Virus record (IMG/VR): IMGVR_UViG_2932017207_000003
Location: 1,193 to 65,192 of that record
Reading direction: 5' to 3' (one strand)
Source of the DNA: a virus
Length of the DNA: 64,000 nt
Positions 22,490-29,621 of the stretch are shown one piece after another. The translations under genes were made by a program, and so were the position numbers. The notes beneath the pieces are model-generated. The model was not told where the DNA came from. It ran no database searches and saw only the letters and a list, made by a program, of their open reading frames with translations. How positions within the stretch are numbered: the stretch's first letter is position 1; each line of letters opens with the position of its first letter.

Positions 22490-23413
22490 TTATGCCTTCA
22501 GATCGCCGCGCAGCAGGACTGCGCGGTTCGGATCGAGGGTCTTGGTGCCGAACAGGATGTCGAGCGAGATAATGTCGGCCTTCTGCTGCATGTCGTACTG
22601 CTTGACGAGGCGCAGCGACAGACCCTTGTAGTTCTCGATCGTCGCCCAGGTGTTGTCGGTCGGGAGCGCGAGAGTCGCCGAGGCGAACGCAAAAGCGCTC
22701 TCGTGGAACGCCATACCGACCTCGGTCGTCGGCTGCCCGGTCGTCGGCGACGCGGGCGGCTGGACGATGTTCTGGGTCATGTACGTGTCGAACCCGAACA
22801 GCTTGGTGCCGAGCGAGCCCTCACGCAGCGCATCCGTCGCGCCGGACTGGTCGACCTGCTTGACCAGAGGCGAGTTCAGCCAGTTGGCGCGAGTCGTCGG
22901 ACCAATCACCGAATGACGCCGCGAGTTCGGAACATTCTTGATGTTCAGCAGGCGATCGGCCTCGATCAGCGCCTCCGGCTTCGTCCACTCGAACCCGGCC
23001 GGCACGGCACCGCCAGCGATCTGAGTGATGTCAGCCTTGCGGGCGATGATCGCGCGGTCCACCGCCTGCGCGAGTGCCTCCGCTGCCGGTGCGAGGAACT
23101 GCTCCTCGAAGTCCTCGATGCGAAGGGTCAGATCCTCCGCCGTGACTGCGAACGAGACGTCCTTGTGCTGGTCCAGCTTGACGTCGATACCGGTCTCGGT
23201 TGCGTTCTGGATGGTGATGTTCGGTGCAGCCCGATCGAAGTTCTGGGCGGTGAATGTGGCGGGCTTGCGGATCGTGACGGTCGATCCGATCTTCTTGCCC
23301 GTCCACTCCTGCGACACGTCCGTGTGGACGAGCGGAACCATGCACAGGTTCTCATACAGGTTCATCAGGGTCTGCTTAGCGATGACAGAGGGGGTGAGAA
23401 TGGTATTAGCCAT
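22490..23413 (-). CDS. Major capsid protein (P22 coat-like)
   Basis: MANTILTPSVIAK; KIGSTVTIRKP; D.LFG.K.LDP motifs. Confidence 0.9.
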   Translation of the reverse strand: MANTILTPSVIAKQTLMNLYENLCMVPLVHTDVSQEWTGKKIGSTVTIRKPATFTAQNFDRAAPNITIQNATETGIDVKLDQHKDVSFAVTAEDLTLRIEDFEEQFLAPAAEALAQAVDRAIIARKADITQIAGGAVPAGFEWTKPEALIEADRLLNIKNVPNSRRHSVIGPTTRANWLNSPLVKQVDQSGATDALREGSLGTKLFGFDTYMTQNIVQPPASPTTGQPTTEVGMAFHESAFAFASATLALPTDNTWATIENYKGLSLRLVKQYDMQQKADIISLDILFGTKTLDPNRAVLLRGDLKA

Positions 23414-23430: not shown

Positions 23431-24156
23431 TTAGACCCGGTCGCGTTCGCGCTTCTCGCGCCGTTCGCGACGGAGGTCATCGATGGACTTGGGGCCGCCG
23501 GCCTTGGGGGCTGCGTTGCCTCCAGAGAGATCACCGCCGCTTCGGGGAGCCGCCACCTGGACGGGTTCCTTCTTCAGCTTCGGGTTGTTGGTAACCGCCT
23601 CGGAGACAAGCGCATCCACCTGGGCTGCGAAGTCGTCCGTGGACGGGTCGAGCTTGTCGAGCAACCCCTCCCCCTTCAGGAACGGGAGAAGGATCGAGGT
23701 GTCGCCGTCATGCTTCGATGCGGCAGTGTTCAGTGCGTCCTTGACTTGGTAGGCGCGGAGCTGAGCCTCGGAAGTGTCGCGCTCACGGGCGATCGCGTCC
23801 TTCTCTGCAGCTGCCTGCTCGAGCAGCTGCGCCGGGTCCACGGGCCCATCGTCCTTGATGAACCCAAGAGCCTTACCCAGCCGCTCAGTCAACGCACGCT
23901 CAGCGTCCTCAGCTGCCTGCTTGGCAGCCTCAGTGCCCTTCACGCGGTTGTCGGCAGCCTCCTTGCGGAGCTTGCGGACGTAGTCCTCGGAGTACGTCTT
24001 CTCCGCCGGCGCCTCAGGTGCGGGGTCGGCAGCCTGTACAGAGCTGCCGGAATCCTCACCCGGAACGGTCTCTACCGGCTCTACTGCGGGAGTAGGAGTT
24101 TCGACCGGGTCGGTCACATCTGCGGAAACATCGGTGGTGGTGGCTTCGTCAGCCAT
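23431..24156 (-). CDS. Capsid scaffolding protein
   Basis: Acidic N-terminus, Y..KLRKEAA..R coiled coil, directly upstream of the capsid gene; ATG at 24156. Confidence 0.85.
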   Translation of the reverse strand: MADEATTTDVSADVTDPVETPTPAVEPVETVPGEDSGSSVQAADPAPEAPAEKTYSEDYVRKLRKEAADNRVKGTEAAKQAAEDAERALTERLGKALGFIKDDGPVDPAQLLEQAAAEKDAIARERDTSEAQLRAYQVKDALNTAASKHDGDTSILLPFLKGEGLLDKLDPSTDDFAAQVDALVSEAVTNNPKLKKEPVQVAAPRSGGDLSGGNAAPKAGGPKSIDDLRRERREKRERDRV

Positions 24157-24265
24157 TTCAGACTCCTCGATGCGGCACCAGGCCGCGACACAGGGATTCC
24201 CCACAGCACCTGGCCGGGGGTCTGGAAGACATCCGCCACACCCAACAAGGGGGCAGACATGAGAA

Positions 24266-24382
24266 AACCCCTGCCCGACAGTGCGGTTCAGGGGTTGAAA
24301 GGGTGCGCCAGAATCAGATCAGACGCGGGGAGCTTGCCGTAGATACACGAAAACCCCCACAAGCCAATGCTGTAGGGGTTTT
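24266..24382 (-). terminator. Two related terminator-like hairpins
   Basis: AACCCCTG/CAGGGGTT (24266-24296) and AAAACCCC/GGGGTTTT (24350-24382), both ending in T-runs on the minus strand. Confidence 0.55.
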
Positions 24383-24458
24383 AGGTACACGCCAAGGATA
24401 GGCCCAACGATACACACCCAAAAAACGGTGTGCAACGGAGTTTCTAGATAGGCAGAAG

Positions 24459-24629
24459 CTACTCCGTCGGAGGCTCCAAGCCGACGTTGAGATAGGCGCG
24501 GATCTCATTCGGGAACGGAGGAATCGGCCGACCGATCACCCGCGACGATTCATGGCGGCTTGCGGTCATCTCCTGCGGAGTCTCAACGACCCGAACCGGA
24601 TGCAGTTCCTCGTCCATGAGAGCACCCAT
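24459..24629 (-). CDS. Micro-ORF B (56 aa), paralog of ORF A; candidate immunity protein
   Basis: GGAAGGA RBS; MGALMDEELHPV...TPQE.TASR...R.YL..GLEPPTE. Confidence 0.7.
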   Translation of the reverse strand: MGALMDEELHPVRVVETPQEMTASRHESSRVIGRPIPPFPNEIRAYLNVGLEPPTE

Positions 24630-24648
24630 AACGACATCCTTCCAGGAA

Positions 24649-24840
24649 CTACTCGGTAGGAGGTTCGAGGCCGGCGTCGAGATAGAGACGCCGCTCAACC
24701 GGAGACACTGGCAGCCTGAAATCAGGATTGCCGTTCACCTCGGCAAGCACCTTCGAAGCACGCAACCGGGAAGCTGTCGCTTCCTGCGGTGTCCGCTTCA
24801 CGAAAACCGGATGCAGTTCCTCATCCATCAGCGCACTCAC
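24649..24840 (-). CDS. Micro-ORF A (63 aa), translationally coupled to MuF-ART; candidate immunity protein
   Basis: GTGA overlap with the toxin stop; MSALMDEELHPVFVKRTPQEATASR...YLDAGLEPPTE. Confidence 0.7.
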   Translation of the reverse strand: MSALMDEELHPVFVKRTPQEATASRLRASKVLAEVNGNPDFRLPVSPVERRLYLDAGLEPPTE

Positions 24841-26669
24841 GAGATCTCCCCTCCCGAGACGACTGCCTGTAGTCGCCATACTCTACGCCCAAGCTGAAGA
24901 CTACGCTGGTCCAGATAGCCGCCCACGATCTCATACGCCTGACCGTCGATGATCAATGCCTCCGCCTCGTCGGGAATCTCTGCCAGGCCACCAAGCCGCA
25001 ATGCTGGGGTACCTCTTGGCACGATCAACTCCAGAATCGCGGGATGAGGGCGCATGGCAGAGTGGGGCGGGTCCGGCCTGACACTGGTGGACATGAACCC
25101 GGGTTCCACCACCTGCTCGCCTATCAGGTGGTCAATCGAGTCAGCCCCAACGAGGTTGAACAGCCTTGCATCGACCTCGCGCGTCACACGCACGGCCTGC
25201 GGAAGCGGATACTTCGACAGTGCCGACCGGATCGCATCGACACGCGACTGGATCGTCGGTGTCATCTCGATTTCTCCACGCAGCGCACGATTGGTGTTGC
25301 GGAATCCACTGATTGCATACGCCTCGATGTGACCTGCCTCGGATTCTGTGAGCAGGTCGGGGCGCTGGCCGCGGAGAACGTCCTCAGCGAGTGGGGTCTG
25401 GTTGAATCCGAACGGGTCGTCGCCATCGCCACCGCCCGACCCTCCACCTCCTGGTGATGGAGTCGGTGCAGATGGTGTGACGCCACCGCTGCCTCCGCCT
25501 GGAACGGAACGGAGCGGTTCATTCGCTGTGTTGCCGCCAGTGTCTTCCGCGCCAGCCGCCATCTTGAGATCCCGATACCCGCGGTGGAGTTGTTCGCGGT
25601 CACGATCACGACTGACCCCGGTCGCGGCGATATGCCGGCGGATGTCGGCCTGGGCGGCACGGATGTGGCGCTTCGCTGCCGCCTCAGCCTCCGGCGACTG
25701 CGCTGCGGCAAGCACACGTTTCCACCGGCGGACACGGCGCTCGAGATACCGCAATTTCTGTGTCGCCCTGTAGCCCTCCGGATCCGGAGGCGAATCATCC
25801 GGCGGCGCAGGATCCTCCGGCGTCCAGATTTTCAGCACGTGTCGGCAACCTGGATGCCACAGGCCACGCGCCTTCGCTTCCTCGATCGAGGCGTACACCC
25901 GGACGCGTTCACTCCGCCCGGTGGCCGGGTTGGTCGTGATGGCGCCGCGGGTGGTGCCCGTGATCGACAAGAGCTTCCCCTCGAAGGGACGACAAAGTTC
26001 GCAACTCTGCGGGACGTCGGAGATGATGACCAAGTCCAGGCCGGCATGACGAGCCTGTGCGAGGTAGGCGCTGACTTCGGCTTCGGTGATCGCCGTTCGG
26101 ACTGCCATCTCGGCGTATGTGACGAGGTCGTAGGAGCGGCCACGTTTGTCGATGAACCCGGAGATGCCTTCGGCCGCGAATTTGTCGAGTGCCCTCTGCA
26201 CGAGGCGTTTGCGGGCGGCCTTGCTGTCGGCTTTCTGTCCGGCCGTGGCTTCGCGGATGATCCGCTGGTAGGCGTTCTCCGTGACGAGTTTTGCCCGTTC
26301 GAGGGGCTGCTCCAGCTTCCGGTTGAGGGCTTCCGCCCGCTGCGCCGAGGCGCCGTCCACCGGGTAGACCGGCACCCGCACGGTGGGCGTGAGGTCGTCG
26401 ATCGCGGCTTGCCGGCCGTTCTCCATAGCCTCACGCATCGCCTCAGAGACGCGGACACGTGATTCGGAGCGAAGGTTGTCGAGGATCCTCGCTACCGCCC
26501 GCCGCACAGGGCCGATCCGTAGTGCGAGCCGTGTCAGACCGGACTGCGGCTGATCGAGATCACCCGTGACTTTGCCAGCGACGTAGCGGATCAGCTTCTC
26601 TTCCGCAGCCGCGTACAGGTTGGTGACGCGGGCAGCGAGTTTGTCCCCGAACGAGGGGGTGAGGGGCAT
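24837..26669 (-). CDS. MuF/minor capsid protein fused to a VIP2-like ADP-ribosyltransferase
   Basis: N-terminal minor-capsid domain (C.LC.PFEG, HPGCRH, QR..ERRVRRWK); Gly/Pro linker; C-terminal R (VTRE), FMSTS and EAE motifs. Confidence 0.85.
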   Translation of the reverse strand: MPLTPSFGDKLAARVTNLYAAAEEKLIRYVAGKVTGDLDQPQSGLTRLALRIGPVRRAVARILDNLRSESRVRVSEAMREAMENGRQAAIDDLTPTVRVPVYPVDGASAQRAEALNRKLEQPLERAKLVTENAYQRIIREATAGQKADSKAARKRLVQRALDKFAAEGISGFIDKRGRSYDLVTYAEMAVRTAITEAEVSAYLAQARHAGLDLVIISDVPQSCELCRPFEGKLLSITGTTRGAITTNPATGRSERVRVYASIEEAKARGLWHPGCRHVLKIWTPEDPAPPDDSPPDPEGYRATQKLRYLERRVRRWKRVLAAAQSPEAEAAAKRHIRAAQADIRRHIAATGVSRDRDREQLHRGYRDLKMAAGAEDTGGNTANEPLRSVPGGGSGGVTPSAPTPSPGGGGSGGGDGDDPFGFNQTPLAEDVLRGQRPDLLTESEAGHIEAYAISGFRNTNRALRGEIEMTPTIQSRVDAIRSALSKYPLPQAVRVTREVDARLFNLVGADSIDHLIGEQVVEPGFMSTSVRPDPPHSAMRPHPAILELIVPRGTPALRLGGLAEIPDEAEALIIDGQAYEIVGGYLDQRSLQLGRRVWRLQAVVSGGEIS

Positions 26670-26672
26670 TGG

Positions 26673-28313
26673 TTATGCCCCGTCGCCCTCGAGCTGGCCC
26701 GGGTTGGAGTCGGCGTCTTGGAGGTCGGTGTGCGGCTCGTCGATGACATCCGGGGTGTCGAACTCGGAAGGCTCATTAGGGATGTCGCGGCCCGTGTCGA
26801 TACGGATGAGGTCGACTTCCTTCTCGACTTCGGGGTTCGACCAGTTCGGGTTGAACATGCGCACACTGCGCTCAATCGACAGGGCGTCCGCCGTGCGCAG
26901 CGTTTGGATGGTGTTCGCCAACTGCTCCGGGGTCTGATCGGGCCTGACAGGGAACTTCATCTCCGGGTTCGCAGTCAGCCCGTAGTCGCCGCCGTACACA
27001 ATCTGATCGAGTTCGACCATCGTTCGCGCAAGCGGTTCCATCTCGGAGCGCCAGTAGCCGATCTTCTTCTCGCGGGTACGGTTCGACAAATCCTTACGGG
27101 CATTCACCTCGGTCGCGGTGATCGAGCCGGTCATCTCGTCGTCACCGAAGTCGGCGATCGAGTAGCCGGCGGACACCAAGATCCGCATCACCAGTTCTTT
27201 GGCGGTGGCCTTGTGTTCCTGGTGGCGGATCGCGAACTGGTTCGCCTGCACGAGCGCATTCGGGGAACCTTCGTCGGTGCCATACATCGACCCCGAGGGG
27301 CCGCCGCGCTTGAGGGGCGTAAAGACGGGCTGCTCCATGTCGAAACTCGCACCCTTACCAGGGCCGTTGTCAAGTAGCGCTTCGTCCGCGACGAACAGGC
27401 GGGACTTTCCGTGGTCGAGGTCCCGCATCCACGACGTCATCGTTTCGTCGAGGGCATCGAACAGCGGCTCGAGGCCATCGAAGTCCGAGCGCCCCAACTG
27501 GGACAGTCCGGGGGTGTTACGCCAGCCGCGGTTCGGGCGCACGTTCGGCACGTACGCTGCCGTGAGGCCCTTGACCCTGGTGGGGATCTTGCCTTCAGCG
27601 TCGACAAGTTCGGCGGCCCACTCGGTTTCGGGCATGTAGTCGAGGGGGAATGCGGAACCGAGTGTGTTTTTGTCGCCTTTATAGAGTCCGTGGTAGATCG
27701 CCCCGGGTTCGTGGCGTTCGAGGTGCCGCCACACGCCTTCTTTGTTGTCCCGCAGGATCGTCCAGAACGTGACGGCGGCGAGCTTCCCGTACCGCCACTC
27801 CGGGATCGCGCCGTCCGCGCCGACCGCAGACAGCATCACTTTGTCGGTGACAGCGGTGTCCCACCACAGCCGCAGGTACACGCCACCGAGCGCAGCCTGC
27901 AGTTCGGCAGCCTCCAGGAATGTTGCGTGTACGTCCTCGCCTTCGAGGAGGTGCTCGAGGCGTTCCTGCGCATCCTCGAAGTTCGTGGCGTCGTCCTTGC
28001 TGATGACCCACTGCGGTGTTTGCGCGAACAGCAGGTCAGCGGAGGTGCGGGCGACATCCGCGGCGATCGGAACGTGCAGCTTCTTCGACGGCTGCAAGGT
28101 CGGGCGGCCCCAGAAGAAGCGGGCAACCATCCCGGCAACGCCACCGGCGTATTGGGAGGGGCGTACCGCCGCGCCGGGCTGCGAATACAACGCAGCGAGG
28201 TGGTCGGTGTCGCCGGCGTACCAGGCGTTCCATACCGCGTACCGCTCCTGCGCGTGGTCATACGGTTCAGGTGGGAACGTGTCGCCGCGCTCAGGCAGTC
28301 CGGGCATCGTCAA
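26673..28313 (-). CDS. Portal protein (SPP1-like)
   Basis: 546 aa after terminase; GRSDF.GLEPLFDALDE..TSW.RD motif. Confidence 0.88.
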   Translation of the reverse strand: MTMPGLPERGDTFPPEPYDHAQERYAVWNAWYAGDTDHLAALYSQPGAAVRPSQYAGGVAGMVARFFWGRPTLQPSKKLHVPIAADVARTSADLLFAQTPQWVISKDDATNFEDAQERLEHLLEGEDVHATFLEAAELQAALGGVYLRLWWDTAVTDKVMLSAVGADGAIPEWRYGKLAAVTFWTILRDNKEGVWRHLERHEPGAIYHGLYKGDKNTLGSAFPLDYMPETEWAAELVDAEGKIPTRVKGLTAAYVPNVRPNRGWRNTPGLSQLGRSDFDGLEPLFDALDETMTSWMRDLDHGKSRLFVADEALLDNGPGKGASFDMEQPVFTPLKRGGPSGSMYGTDEGSPNALVQANQFAIRHQEHKATAKELVMRILVSAGYSIADFGDDEMTGSITATEVNARKDLSNRTREKKIGYWRSEMEPLARTMVELDQIVYGGDYGLTANPEMKFPVRPDQTPEQLANTIQTLRTADALSIERSVRMFNPNWSNPEVEKEVDLIRIDTGRDIPNEPSEFDTPDVIDEPHTDLQDADSNPGQLEGDGA

Positions 28314-28373: not shown

Positions 28374-29621
28374 CTAGTGAACAGTGAGGTCCGACCAGCC
28401 CCGGGAGGTGTGGGTTCCAACGAGAAGGCCCGCCATGCCAGGCTGAGACCACACGCCGTACTGGTGCTTCATGTACTCATCGGAGGCACCCAAAGCTTCA
28501 AGTGCAGGAAGACCGAACAGGGCACGGCCCTCGAACTCCATCGTGTAGTGGTGGTGGTAGTGCGCGAAGAACCATAGGGGCACCGCACCGAGTCGAGGGG
28601 TGTCGCCCAGGATCTGACGGTCGATCGCTGCCTTGGTCTTCGGCCCGGACGCTTGGCCGCGACCCTTCTCCGTGTAGCCATGGGTCATGTAGCAATCCAC
28701 GCCCGACAAGTTGACGACGACACCCGGTTCGCCAGTGTCGCCGATGGTCCAGTCAATCTTGGGGCCACCGAAGGGCTCCAACTCATCAAACATCTTCTGG
28801 ACCTGGCGGGCCACGAAGGTGGATGCGTTGTCACTGCGGCTGGTGACAGGATCCTTGGATCCGTTCCGGGTCCACTCGCCGTGGTTAGAGATCACCGATG
28901 ACGCGGACATCGGAAGCCCCAACGCTGCAATCTCTTTGAGCGTCCACACACGCAGGTCGTAGTCCAATTCCAACTGCTGAGACTGGTTCAATTCGACCGC
29001 GAAAGGCTGGCTGCCGTAGTTGTTGCATACGCCTTCGGTTTCGTCGCCCATCCACCCGATATGGACTCCCTCAGGCTGCCGGCCAGCGCTCACCAGAGTG
29101 CGGATGGTGGCGCAGTGGTCTCGGACGCCGTTCTTCCAGTTCTCGACCGCTTCCTCGGTGCCCGGCTTCCCGAGCTGCGGGTCTGCGATGAAGATCGGAT
29201 ACGAGGCTGGGAGAGTTACCGCCGCAACTGGGGCTTCGGTAGGACGGTCAGTGATGGACTGCAGCACCGAACGCCATTCCCGCACGGTGCTGTCCGGGAT
29301 CCGGGCGTGGCTGATGCGGCGGAACCTAGCGCTGTACGAGTACGCATACAGGGTGATGACGTCACGGTCGCCACTCTCGGTGCGCTTGGACTGCTGCCAT
29401 TCGCTGATCTTCTCGGAGACCGTGTCATCAACGATCTCGAAGTGTTCGGGGTTCTTGCCGAACTTCTTGAAGATCGGTGTCCAGTCGTCAGCGATGGGCT
29501 GGTCGACAACAACATTCTTGAACTCCAGGCCATCGGGTGAGGTGATGCACTCACCAGCCGACTCGGGTCGCCTGGGTGGTTCAGATCTTGGCGTGTTGGC
29601 GAGGTCGTCTGCGAGGCTCAC
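28374..29621 (-). CDS. Calcineurin-like metallophosphoesterase
   Basis: ADPQLGK, GDETEG, SNHGE, THG and HYHH metal-binding motifs. Confidence 0.75.
   Translation of the reverse strand: MSLADDLANTPRSEPPRRPESAGECITSPDGLEFKNVVVDQPIADDWTPIFKKFGKNPEHFEIVDDTVSEKISEWQQSKRTESGDRDVITLYAYSYSARFRRISHARIPDSTVREWRSVLQSITDRPTEAPVAAVTLPASYPIFIADPQLGKPGTEEAVENWKNGVRDHCATIRTLVSAGRQPEGVHIGWMGDETEGVCNNYGSQPFAVELNQSQQLELDYDLRVWTLKEIAALGLPMSASSVISNHGEWTRNGSKDPVTSRSDNASTFVARQVQKMFDELEPFGGPKIDWTIGDTGEPGVVVNLSGVDCYMTHGYTEKGRGQASGPKTKAAIDRQILGDTPRLGAVPLWFFAHYHHHYTMEFEGRALFGLPALEALGASDEYMKHQYGVWSQPGMAGLLVGTHTSRGWSDLTVH

Follow-up and report, generated by a model that had tools for sequence, protein, structure and literature searches.

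What is the role of two very small open reading frames (ORFs) which lie one after the other directly behind a phage capsid gene with an enzymatic tip? The window analysed here (64,000 nucleotides (nt), positions 1,193 to 65,192 of the IMG/VR record IMGVR_UViG_2932017207_000003) contains such a locus at 24,459 to 26,669: a gene for a fusion of a MuF capsid domain and an ADP-ribosyltransferase (ART), followed by the micro-ORFs orfA and orfB. These genes, and all others of the window named below, are on the minus strand. The whole record is 71.6 kb long, is labelled 'provirus' and 87% complete, and is carried on a 229-kb contig; the phage appears to be an actinobacterial, Rhodococcus-type prophage. 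An earlier reading of the window made without database searches (the sequence-only reading) had proposed, as its main interpretation, a virion-delivered ART followed by a duplicated pair of immunity genes, the cognate one and an orphan. Comparative evidence favours this proposal, because the micro-ORF family follows the ART, the ART clade is always partnered, orphan copies and arrays exist, and the whole cassette swaps as a unit. Judged by such comparisons, the locus probably codes for a MuF polymorphic toxin with an ART tip which is neutralised by small structural immunity proteins.

The fusion gene (24837-26669) codes for 610 aa. Its MuF part, Phage_min_cap2 (PF06152, E 1.4e-38), spans residues 3-347 (25629-26663) and is the conserved backbone part of the protein, which as a whole matches PHROG 581 'minor head protein' (E 4.6e-64). 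The Pfam family ADPrib_exo_Tox (PF03496, E 3.2e-16) covers residues 440-581, and a flexible Gly/Pro/Ser-rich linker at approximately residues 373-430 joins the two domains. The ART motifs follow in order: R497 within VTR (codon 25179-25181), S527-T528-S529 within FMSTS (25083-25091), and E568-A-E570 (24960-24968). Both C2-I and Listeria Lmo0066 have their catalytic Arg, STS, and ExE at the aligned positions. The architecture given by the sequence-only reading (MuF domain, Gly/Pro linker, R-STS-ExE ART) is thus borne out by Pfam domains, linker, and motif alignment alike. Invariant in 17 members of the ART clade are a Tyr/Asn pair, the arginine of R-V-T-R, and the F-x-S-T-S and E-x-E motifs, and with them the R, STS, and ExE residues named above.

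The catalytic domain (residues 421-610, 24840-25409) was analysed by AlphaFold2 (AF2) modelling, Foldseek, and a profile search of PDB. The AF2 model has a mean predicted local distance difference test score (pLDDT) of 91.7. Its top Foldseek matches are Certhrax, Plx2A, Lmo0066, C2-I, C3, VIP2, CDTa, and iota Ia (E ~1e-12, template modelling (TM) score 0.7-0.79), and the best sequence-profile match in PDB is Lmo0066 (8za7_B, 3e-16). By motifs and by fold the domain is a C2/C3/VIP2-type R-S-E ADP-ribosyltransferase of PF03496, even though its sequence is only ~20-24% identical to the C2/C3/VIP2/iota-type enzymes. Its sequence looks catalytically intact, and the ExE motif suggests arginine as the acceptor.

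The micro-ORFs are closely coupled to this gene. The GTG start of orfA (24649-24840, 63 aa) and the TGA with which the ART gene stops overlap as GTGA, and a GGGAGG Shine-Dalgarno sequence precedes this start; orfB (24459-24629, 56 aa) starts with ATG, with GGAAGGA 7 nt upstream. The two stop codons are 190 nt apart. The proteins are 66% identical, with identical ends (xALMDEELHPV, TPQE.TASR, GLEPPTE) and a diverged middle which includes a 7-residue indel; orfB has the canonical length of the family, and orfA is a long form with a 7-residue insertion. The overlap, both lengths, the 190 offset, and the common termini around a diverged middle had all been noted from the letters alone and agree with the present coordinates and alignment. 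Since an orfA query retrieves orfB within the record at E 4.7e-14, the likeness is not due to chance, and by sequence the two genes are paralogous. That ART and orfA are fused in the window by readthrough or frameshifting was considered and rejected, given the different reading frame of orfA, its own Shine-Dalgarno sequence, and its conserved N-terminus.

Substitution patterns indicate that both are real genes under strong purifying selection. The orfA protein is identical in 62 of 63 aa to the product of the second copy in locus L019 (L019:4800-4991), with 89% identity in nt, a synonymous divergence (dS) of 0.58, and a ratio of nonsynonymous to synonymous divergence (dN/dS) of 0.04. For orfB, dN/dS is 0.16 against the second copy in locus L003 and 0.18 against the partner in locus L005. 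Between orfA and orfB dS is ~1.05 and dN/dS 0.37; by this dS the duplication is old. As a unit, the A-B pair also has a colinear counterpart in Rhodococcus sp. LBL1 (L003:5799-6173, 76.5% nt identity). In the AF2 model of the orfB protein (pLDDT 86) the first 17 residues are flexible; two helices follow (18-32 and 40-48), and the tail is extended. A Foldseek search of PDB with this model found nothing at E<=0.001, and an Atlas feature search gave scores of 0.80-0.81, which is chance level.

The sequence-only reading did not recognise the micro-protein family, and neither do the databases: no match to orfA or orfB was found in Pfam, PHROGs, NCBIfam, or PADLOC, nor among PDB folds. TBLASTN searches of 50,697 phage records with orfA or orfB returned none, and megablast of the region likewise. 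A word-indexed search of 5.8 billion proteins yielded 7 family members, and an exhaustive HMMER search of 1.84 billion representative proteins gave 18 hits at E<1e-3, of which 3 were spurious. The long multi-stretch hits P0009, P0010, and P0016 are repetitive proteins and were rejected as members. The family is therefore small, unannotated, and ~56 aa long, of a size easily missed by gene callers, and can now be defined by its consensus, MSAL.DD.L....V..TPQE.TA.RR.....LG...PP...EI..Y..AGLEPPTE. Invariant positions (in orfA numbering) are T22, R25, E49, G57, P60, and P61. The N-terminal half is kept even in divergent short forms without the GLEPPTE tail (L032-L040, L048), and for this reason it was taken as the ART-related core.

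Linkage to ART genes had been named by the sequence-only reading as a check on its proposal, and the linkage holds. It was surveyed in 401 genomes of the GTDB family containing Rhodococcus olei, with a cut-off of >128 bits for membership in the ART clade. The clade is present in 10 of these genomes and in every one of them a micro-ORF lies immediately downstream. Nine partners were found directly; the tenth (L048) is weak, with only the N-terminal half matching (E 2e-4). Weaker ART hits from other subfamilies in the same genomes, some within giant proteins, have no micro-ORF. The micro-ORF itself occurs in 17 genomes, in 8 of which no ART lies beside it. Where a clade ART is present, the distance is usually 0-40 nt.

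The N-terminal carriers of the ART vary. Fusion to Phage_min_cap2 is found in the window, L005/L006, and L048, and fusion to VG15 (VIP15-like) in L010, L014, L017/L018, L042, and L043. Metagenomic loci added a third carrier, Phage_Mu_F (L013). Standalone ARTs of 196-291 aa with a micro-ORF are found in L007 and L044-L050, in non-phage contexts, and also in L073-L075; the surroundings of such pairs include a replication-relaxation gene, a SUKH-1 immunity gene, or metabolic genes. Because the partner accompanies three N-terminal carriers as well as standalone ARTs, the micro-ORF family by gene neighbourhood tracks the ART domain and not the MuF domain. This is strong comparative evidence that it is a dedicated partner of one bacterial ART clade in Mycobacteriales and their phages.

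Several individual loci depart from the simple arrangement. The order is reversed in L009, where the micro-ORF directly precedes a standalone ART, and an ADP-ribosylglycohydrolase (PF03747) is found two genes downstream of the ART (L009:3640-4560), so that a small partner and an ADP-ribosylhydrolase (ARH) occur together as in the Bxa-Bsi-BAH system discussed below. In L074 the SUKH-1 (SMI1_KNR4) immunity-type gene (L074:6480-7079) adjoins the standalone pair, which points to an island of immunity or toxin genes. Upstream of the complete pair in L007 lies a C-terminal fragment of an ART (its last ~50 residues) with its own intact micro-ORF (L007:4546-5015), an orphan toxin-tip/immunity remnant of the kind found in polymorphic-toxin loci. 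A frameshift near the C-terminus of the ART in L046:1459-2184 (the same locus as L033) places ART and micro-ORF in one 241-aa frame, and in L051/L040 a frameshift splits the ART while the micro-ORF is intact. These frameshifts may represent decay, sequencing errors, or a genuine toxin-antidote fusion.

Evidence that the ART and both micro-ORFs move as one block comes from a prophage of Prescottella equi. The closest MuF relatives belong to P. equi and Rhodococcus, and several of them are MuF-only proteins of ~400 aa. A P. equi MuF protein of 585 aa (P0022) is 85% identical in aa to that of the window over residues 1-372 and unrelated thereafter. At the DNA level (blastn) the P. equi prophage (L072) matches the window colinearly, at 83% nt identity, from the gene that precedes the portal gene as far as 25551, and colinearity resumes at 24444 and continues through the scaffold and capsid genes. 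These breaks delimit the exchangeable cassette (24445-25550): 1106 nt in the window containing the linker, ART, orfA, and orfB, and 1119 nt in P. equi containing a different linker, an unrelated C-terminal domain, and a 115-aa ORF. The P. equi C-terminal domain has a non-significant match to CdiA_C (E 0.22). This block replacement means that ART, orfA, and orfB form one exchangeable module, a hallmark of polymorphic toxin-immunity cassettes. A tRNA-Arg(ACG) gene (L072:12159-12233) sits exactly at the right-hand edge of the swapped segment in P. equi; no tRNA is present at the corresponding position of the window (24444-24458).

The exchange also bears on whether the enzyme is a toxin in the competitive sense. 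T4 Alt is a packaged R-S-E ART, and the ART of the window could likewise be a host-takeover enzyme which on injection reprogrammes the new host, with micro-proteins that only time its activity and keep it off until packaging or injection. The provirus encodes no ADP-ribosylhydrolase, which would fit such a role, and Jamet et al. propose that ART-type MuF toxins might be only mildly toxic and might steer the lysis-lysogeny decision (PMC5576092). However, close relatives of the ART are found as standalone two-gene modules in chromosomal or mobile-island settings, one of them beside the SUKH-1 gene, which is a toxin-antitoxin or polymorphic-toxin layout. In sister phages the C-terminal domain is freely exchanged for unrelated ones and is therefore not essential for takeover. 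A takeover enzyme is thus the less likely case, though it deserves to be taken seriously.

Micro-ORFs without an ART are found in phages closely related to that of the window. Two Rhodococcus genomes (L003 and L019) contain tail proteins of ~2060 aa with an SLT domain which are 88-98% identical to that encoded by the window's own tail gene (tape-measure-like, 12631 to ~18800), and these loci are therefore sister prophages. In both, an ORF6N-like gene (weak PF10543 match, E 4e-4) lies ~2 kb past the tail gene and is followed by micro-ORFs and no ART: two copies in L003 and three in L019, one of the latter near-identical to orfA. The ORF6N-like gene is fused in frame with the first micro-ORF in L003:5520-5981 (153 aa); in L019:4327-4780 it is separate from the first micro-ORF and overlaps it. 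In L008 and L011 a single micro-ORF is placed divergently beside a related large tail-protein gene, and in L015 a micro-ORF follows a XRE-type helix-turn-helix (HTH) gene.

Such loci are among the points which weigh against a toxin-immunity cassette. No ART lies within reach in 15 of the ~31 non-redundant micro-ORF loci, and with about half of the loci ART-less the micro-ORFs may have a function independent of the ART. No ART was found with an orfA-type (63-aa) protein as its only partner, so no cognate was found for orfA. The divergence of ARTs and that of their partners are modestly correlated (Mantel r 0.35, p 0.004), a correlation which can arise from shared descent alone. Finally, the 71.6-kb, 87%-complete record yielded no integrase of the tyrosine or serine type, so that the temperate lifestyle rests on the IMG/VR 'provirus' label and on the 229-kb carrying contig.

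The ART-less loci would also be accounted for if the micro-proteins had nothing to do with the ART and merely hitch-hiked in mobile cassettes which often carry the ART as well; they could then be small regulators, for instance, or factors of anti-defence or exclusion. The copies behind the ORF6N-like and XRE-type HTH genes are compatible with this explanation, and the predicted two-helix core fits many functions. It nevertheless appears very improbable: the micro-ORF adjoins the ART in every clade-ART genome surveyed and across four N-terminal contexts, the two are exchanged together in the P. equi comparison, and the truncated or frameshifted ARTs (the L007 fragment, L040/L051) retain an intact micro-ORF. 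The sequence-only reading had stated that occurrence of the ORFs independently of ART genes would speak against it. Such independence does exist in about half of the loci, but it is one-sided. The ART never occurs without a micro-ORF, while the micro-ORF often occurs without the ART and sometimes in arrays, which is the pattern expected of immunity genes; it was therefore not counted as refutation.

The same asymmetry helps to judge whether the micro-proteins could be partners of the ART which do not inhibit it, such as a chaperone for folding or packaging, an adaptor, or an activating cofactor which the enzyme requires for its activity or for loading into the capsid. Strict adjacency and translational coupling to the ART gene are consistent with a role of this kind, as is the predicted flexibility of the N-terminal 17 residues, which resembles peptides that fold on binding. 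But the same family stands beside standalone non-phage ARTs, where no packaging occurs, and ART-less orphans and multi-copy arrays make no sense for a cofactor or a chaperone and are typical for immunity genes. A non-inhibitory partner is accordingly improbable, if somewhat less so than an unrelated passenger.

If the micro-proteins are immunity proteins, the system could work as follows. The capsid would take up a few copies of the MuF-ART protein, which would reach the next host along with the DNA; we infer packaging and injection from the parallel with SPP1 gp7 and T4 Alt and from the model proposed by Jamet et al. In the producing cell or the lysogen, the orfA and orfB proteins would bind the ART domain and keep it inactive, and they would also neutralise ART arriving from related phages. 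Binding and inhibition are the most likely action in view of the gene linkage and of the Bxa-Bsi precedent. A further, speculative idea is that the invariant R25 may act as a pseudo-substrate for an Arg-specific ART.

The two genes need not have the same part in this. The closest ART, that of L005 (~74% identical), has a single orfB-type partner with the same GTGA overlap, and the window differs from L005 by exactly one extra unit of 190 nt, which is the body of orfA. Since the orfB type is the sole partner of the closest ART and the orfA type is found in ART-less arrays, the pair is read as a cognate gene plus an extra gene of orphan type: orfB probably represents the ancestral type, that of the cognate partner, and orfA an immunity gene of the orphan type which was added to it. 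It is tentatively suggested, as a rather unlikely extension, that the orphan copies and arrays are moron-like genes of the sister prophages which serve as antidotes to ARTs injected by rival or superinfecting phages, and that the orfA-orfB tandem of the window widens the range of ART variants which a lysogen of this phage withstands. If this were true, they would constitute a prophage-encoded protection system neutralising a virion-delivered enzyme.

Several described systems resemble the locus in part. MuF toxins of temperate phages, among them EFV of Enterococcus faecalis V583, were surveyed by Jamet et al. (2017, PMC5576092); 14% of them are ARTs, and a small ORF (<150 aa) lies directly downstream. 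What that study uses to recognise such toxins is found here as well: a MuF domain adjoining the portal gene, a C-terminal toxin domain which varies among close relatives, and a small downstream ORF which travels with it; the setting, too, may be that of a prophage. Unlike those systems, the locus of the window is actinobacterial, its partner is a conserved family of ~56 aa in two diverged tandem copies, and this family also serves ARTs which are fused to VG15 or Phage_Mu_F or stand alone.

A prophage of Bacteroides stercoris encodes the Bxa-Bsi-BAH system (Alexei et al. 2024, PMC11699363), with two protective genes for one toxin: Bsi, a small protein without enzymatic function, binds an antibacterial ART and blocks it by occluding the active site, and BAH is an ADP-ribosylhydrolase which gives a second, enzymatic immunity. 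By gene linkage the window appears similar, with a MuF-type N-terminus fused to an ART, a small neighbour, and two putative protective genes. In the window, however, both putative protective genes belong to one small family as paralogues, and unlike the case of BAH no match to the ADP-ribosylhydrolase family PF03747 was found in the 71.6-kb provirus; the one ARH encountered is that of the related metagenomic locus L009. The nearest solved relative of the ART, Lmo0066 of Listeria (PDB 8za7), belongs to an ART-ARH effector-immunity pair, whereas the putative protector in the window is a small protein and not an ARH.

Fusions of MuF with a VIP2-type ART are also known from actinobacteriophages, in lytic isolates of Microbacterium phage clusters EH/EJ (Jacobs-Sera et al. 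2020, PMC7302621). Those phages differ in being lytic, and a partner gene is not discussed for them. As none of the 50,697 phage records contains a TBLASTN match to orfA or orfB, the micro-ORF family is not common to the EH/EJ phages. MuF-ART fusions in Firmicutes (EFV), Bacteroides (Bxa), and actinobacteriophages, and the rule of a small ORF downstream, are thus already published. New here are the partner family, its exclusive tie to one ART clade of Mycobacteriales, the tandem duplication, and the orphan arrays. The locus offers a compact candidate toxin/antidote pair with which virion-delivered MuF-ARTs could be probed in actinobacterial hosts, and the cognate, duplicated, and orphan partners form a natural set for studies of immunity specificity.

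The genes around the cassette are those of a phage head module, in the order portal, MuF-ART, orfA, orfB, an intergenic region of ~250 nt, scaffold-like gene, and P22-type capsid. The portal gene (26673-28313; Pfam SPP1_portal, E 7e-10; PHROG 533, E 3e-90) ends 4 nt before the MuF-ART gene begins. On the downstream side of the cassette lie the scaffold-like gene (23431-24204; PHROG 8952 and PHROG 233 'head scaffolding') and the gene for the P22-coat-like major capsid protein (22490-23413; PF11651, E 1.7e-39; PHROG 283).

The intergenic region (24205-24444) is predicted to fold into three hairpins (RNA fold z -4.09), two of which are followed by U runs. It is 87% identical in nt to the P. equi prophage, a conservation at least as high as that of the flanking genes. 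The region is phage backbone, outside the cassette, and it probably holds terminators and regulatory signals which divide the portal-MuF unit from the scaffold-capsid unit. No Rfam match was found in 24100-24900, and a simple terminator scan reported one site only, inside orfA, at chance rate. In L005 a GC hairpin with a T run likewise lies 3' of the micro-ORF. Directly upstream of the portal gene is a gene coding for 415 aa (28374-29621), whose sole match is PHROG 284 'exonuclease' (E 1e-24), with none in Pfam or NCBIfam; it is kept in the P. equi prophage (398 aa).

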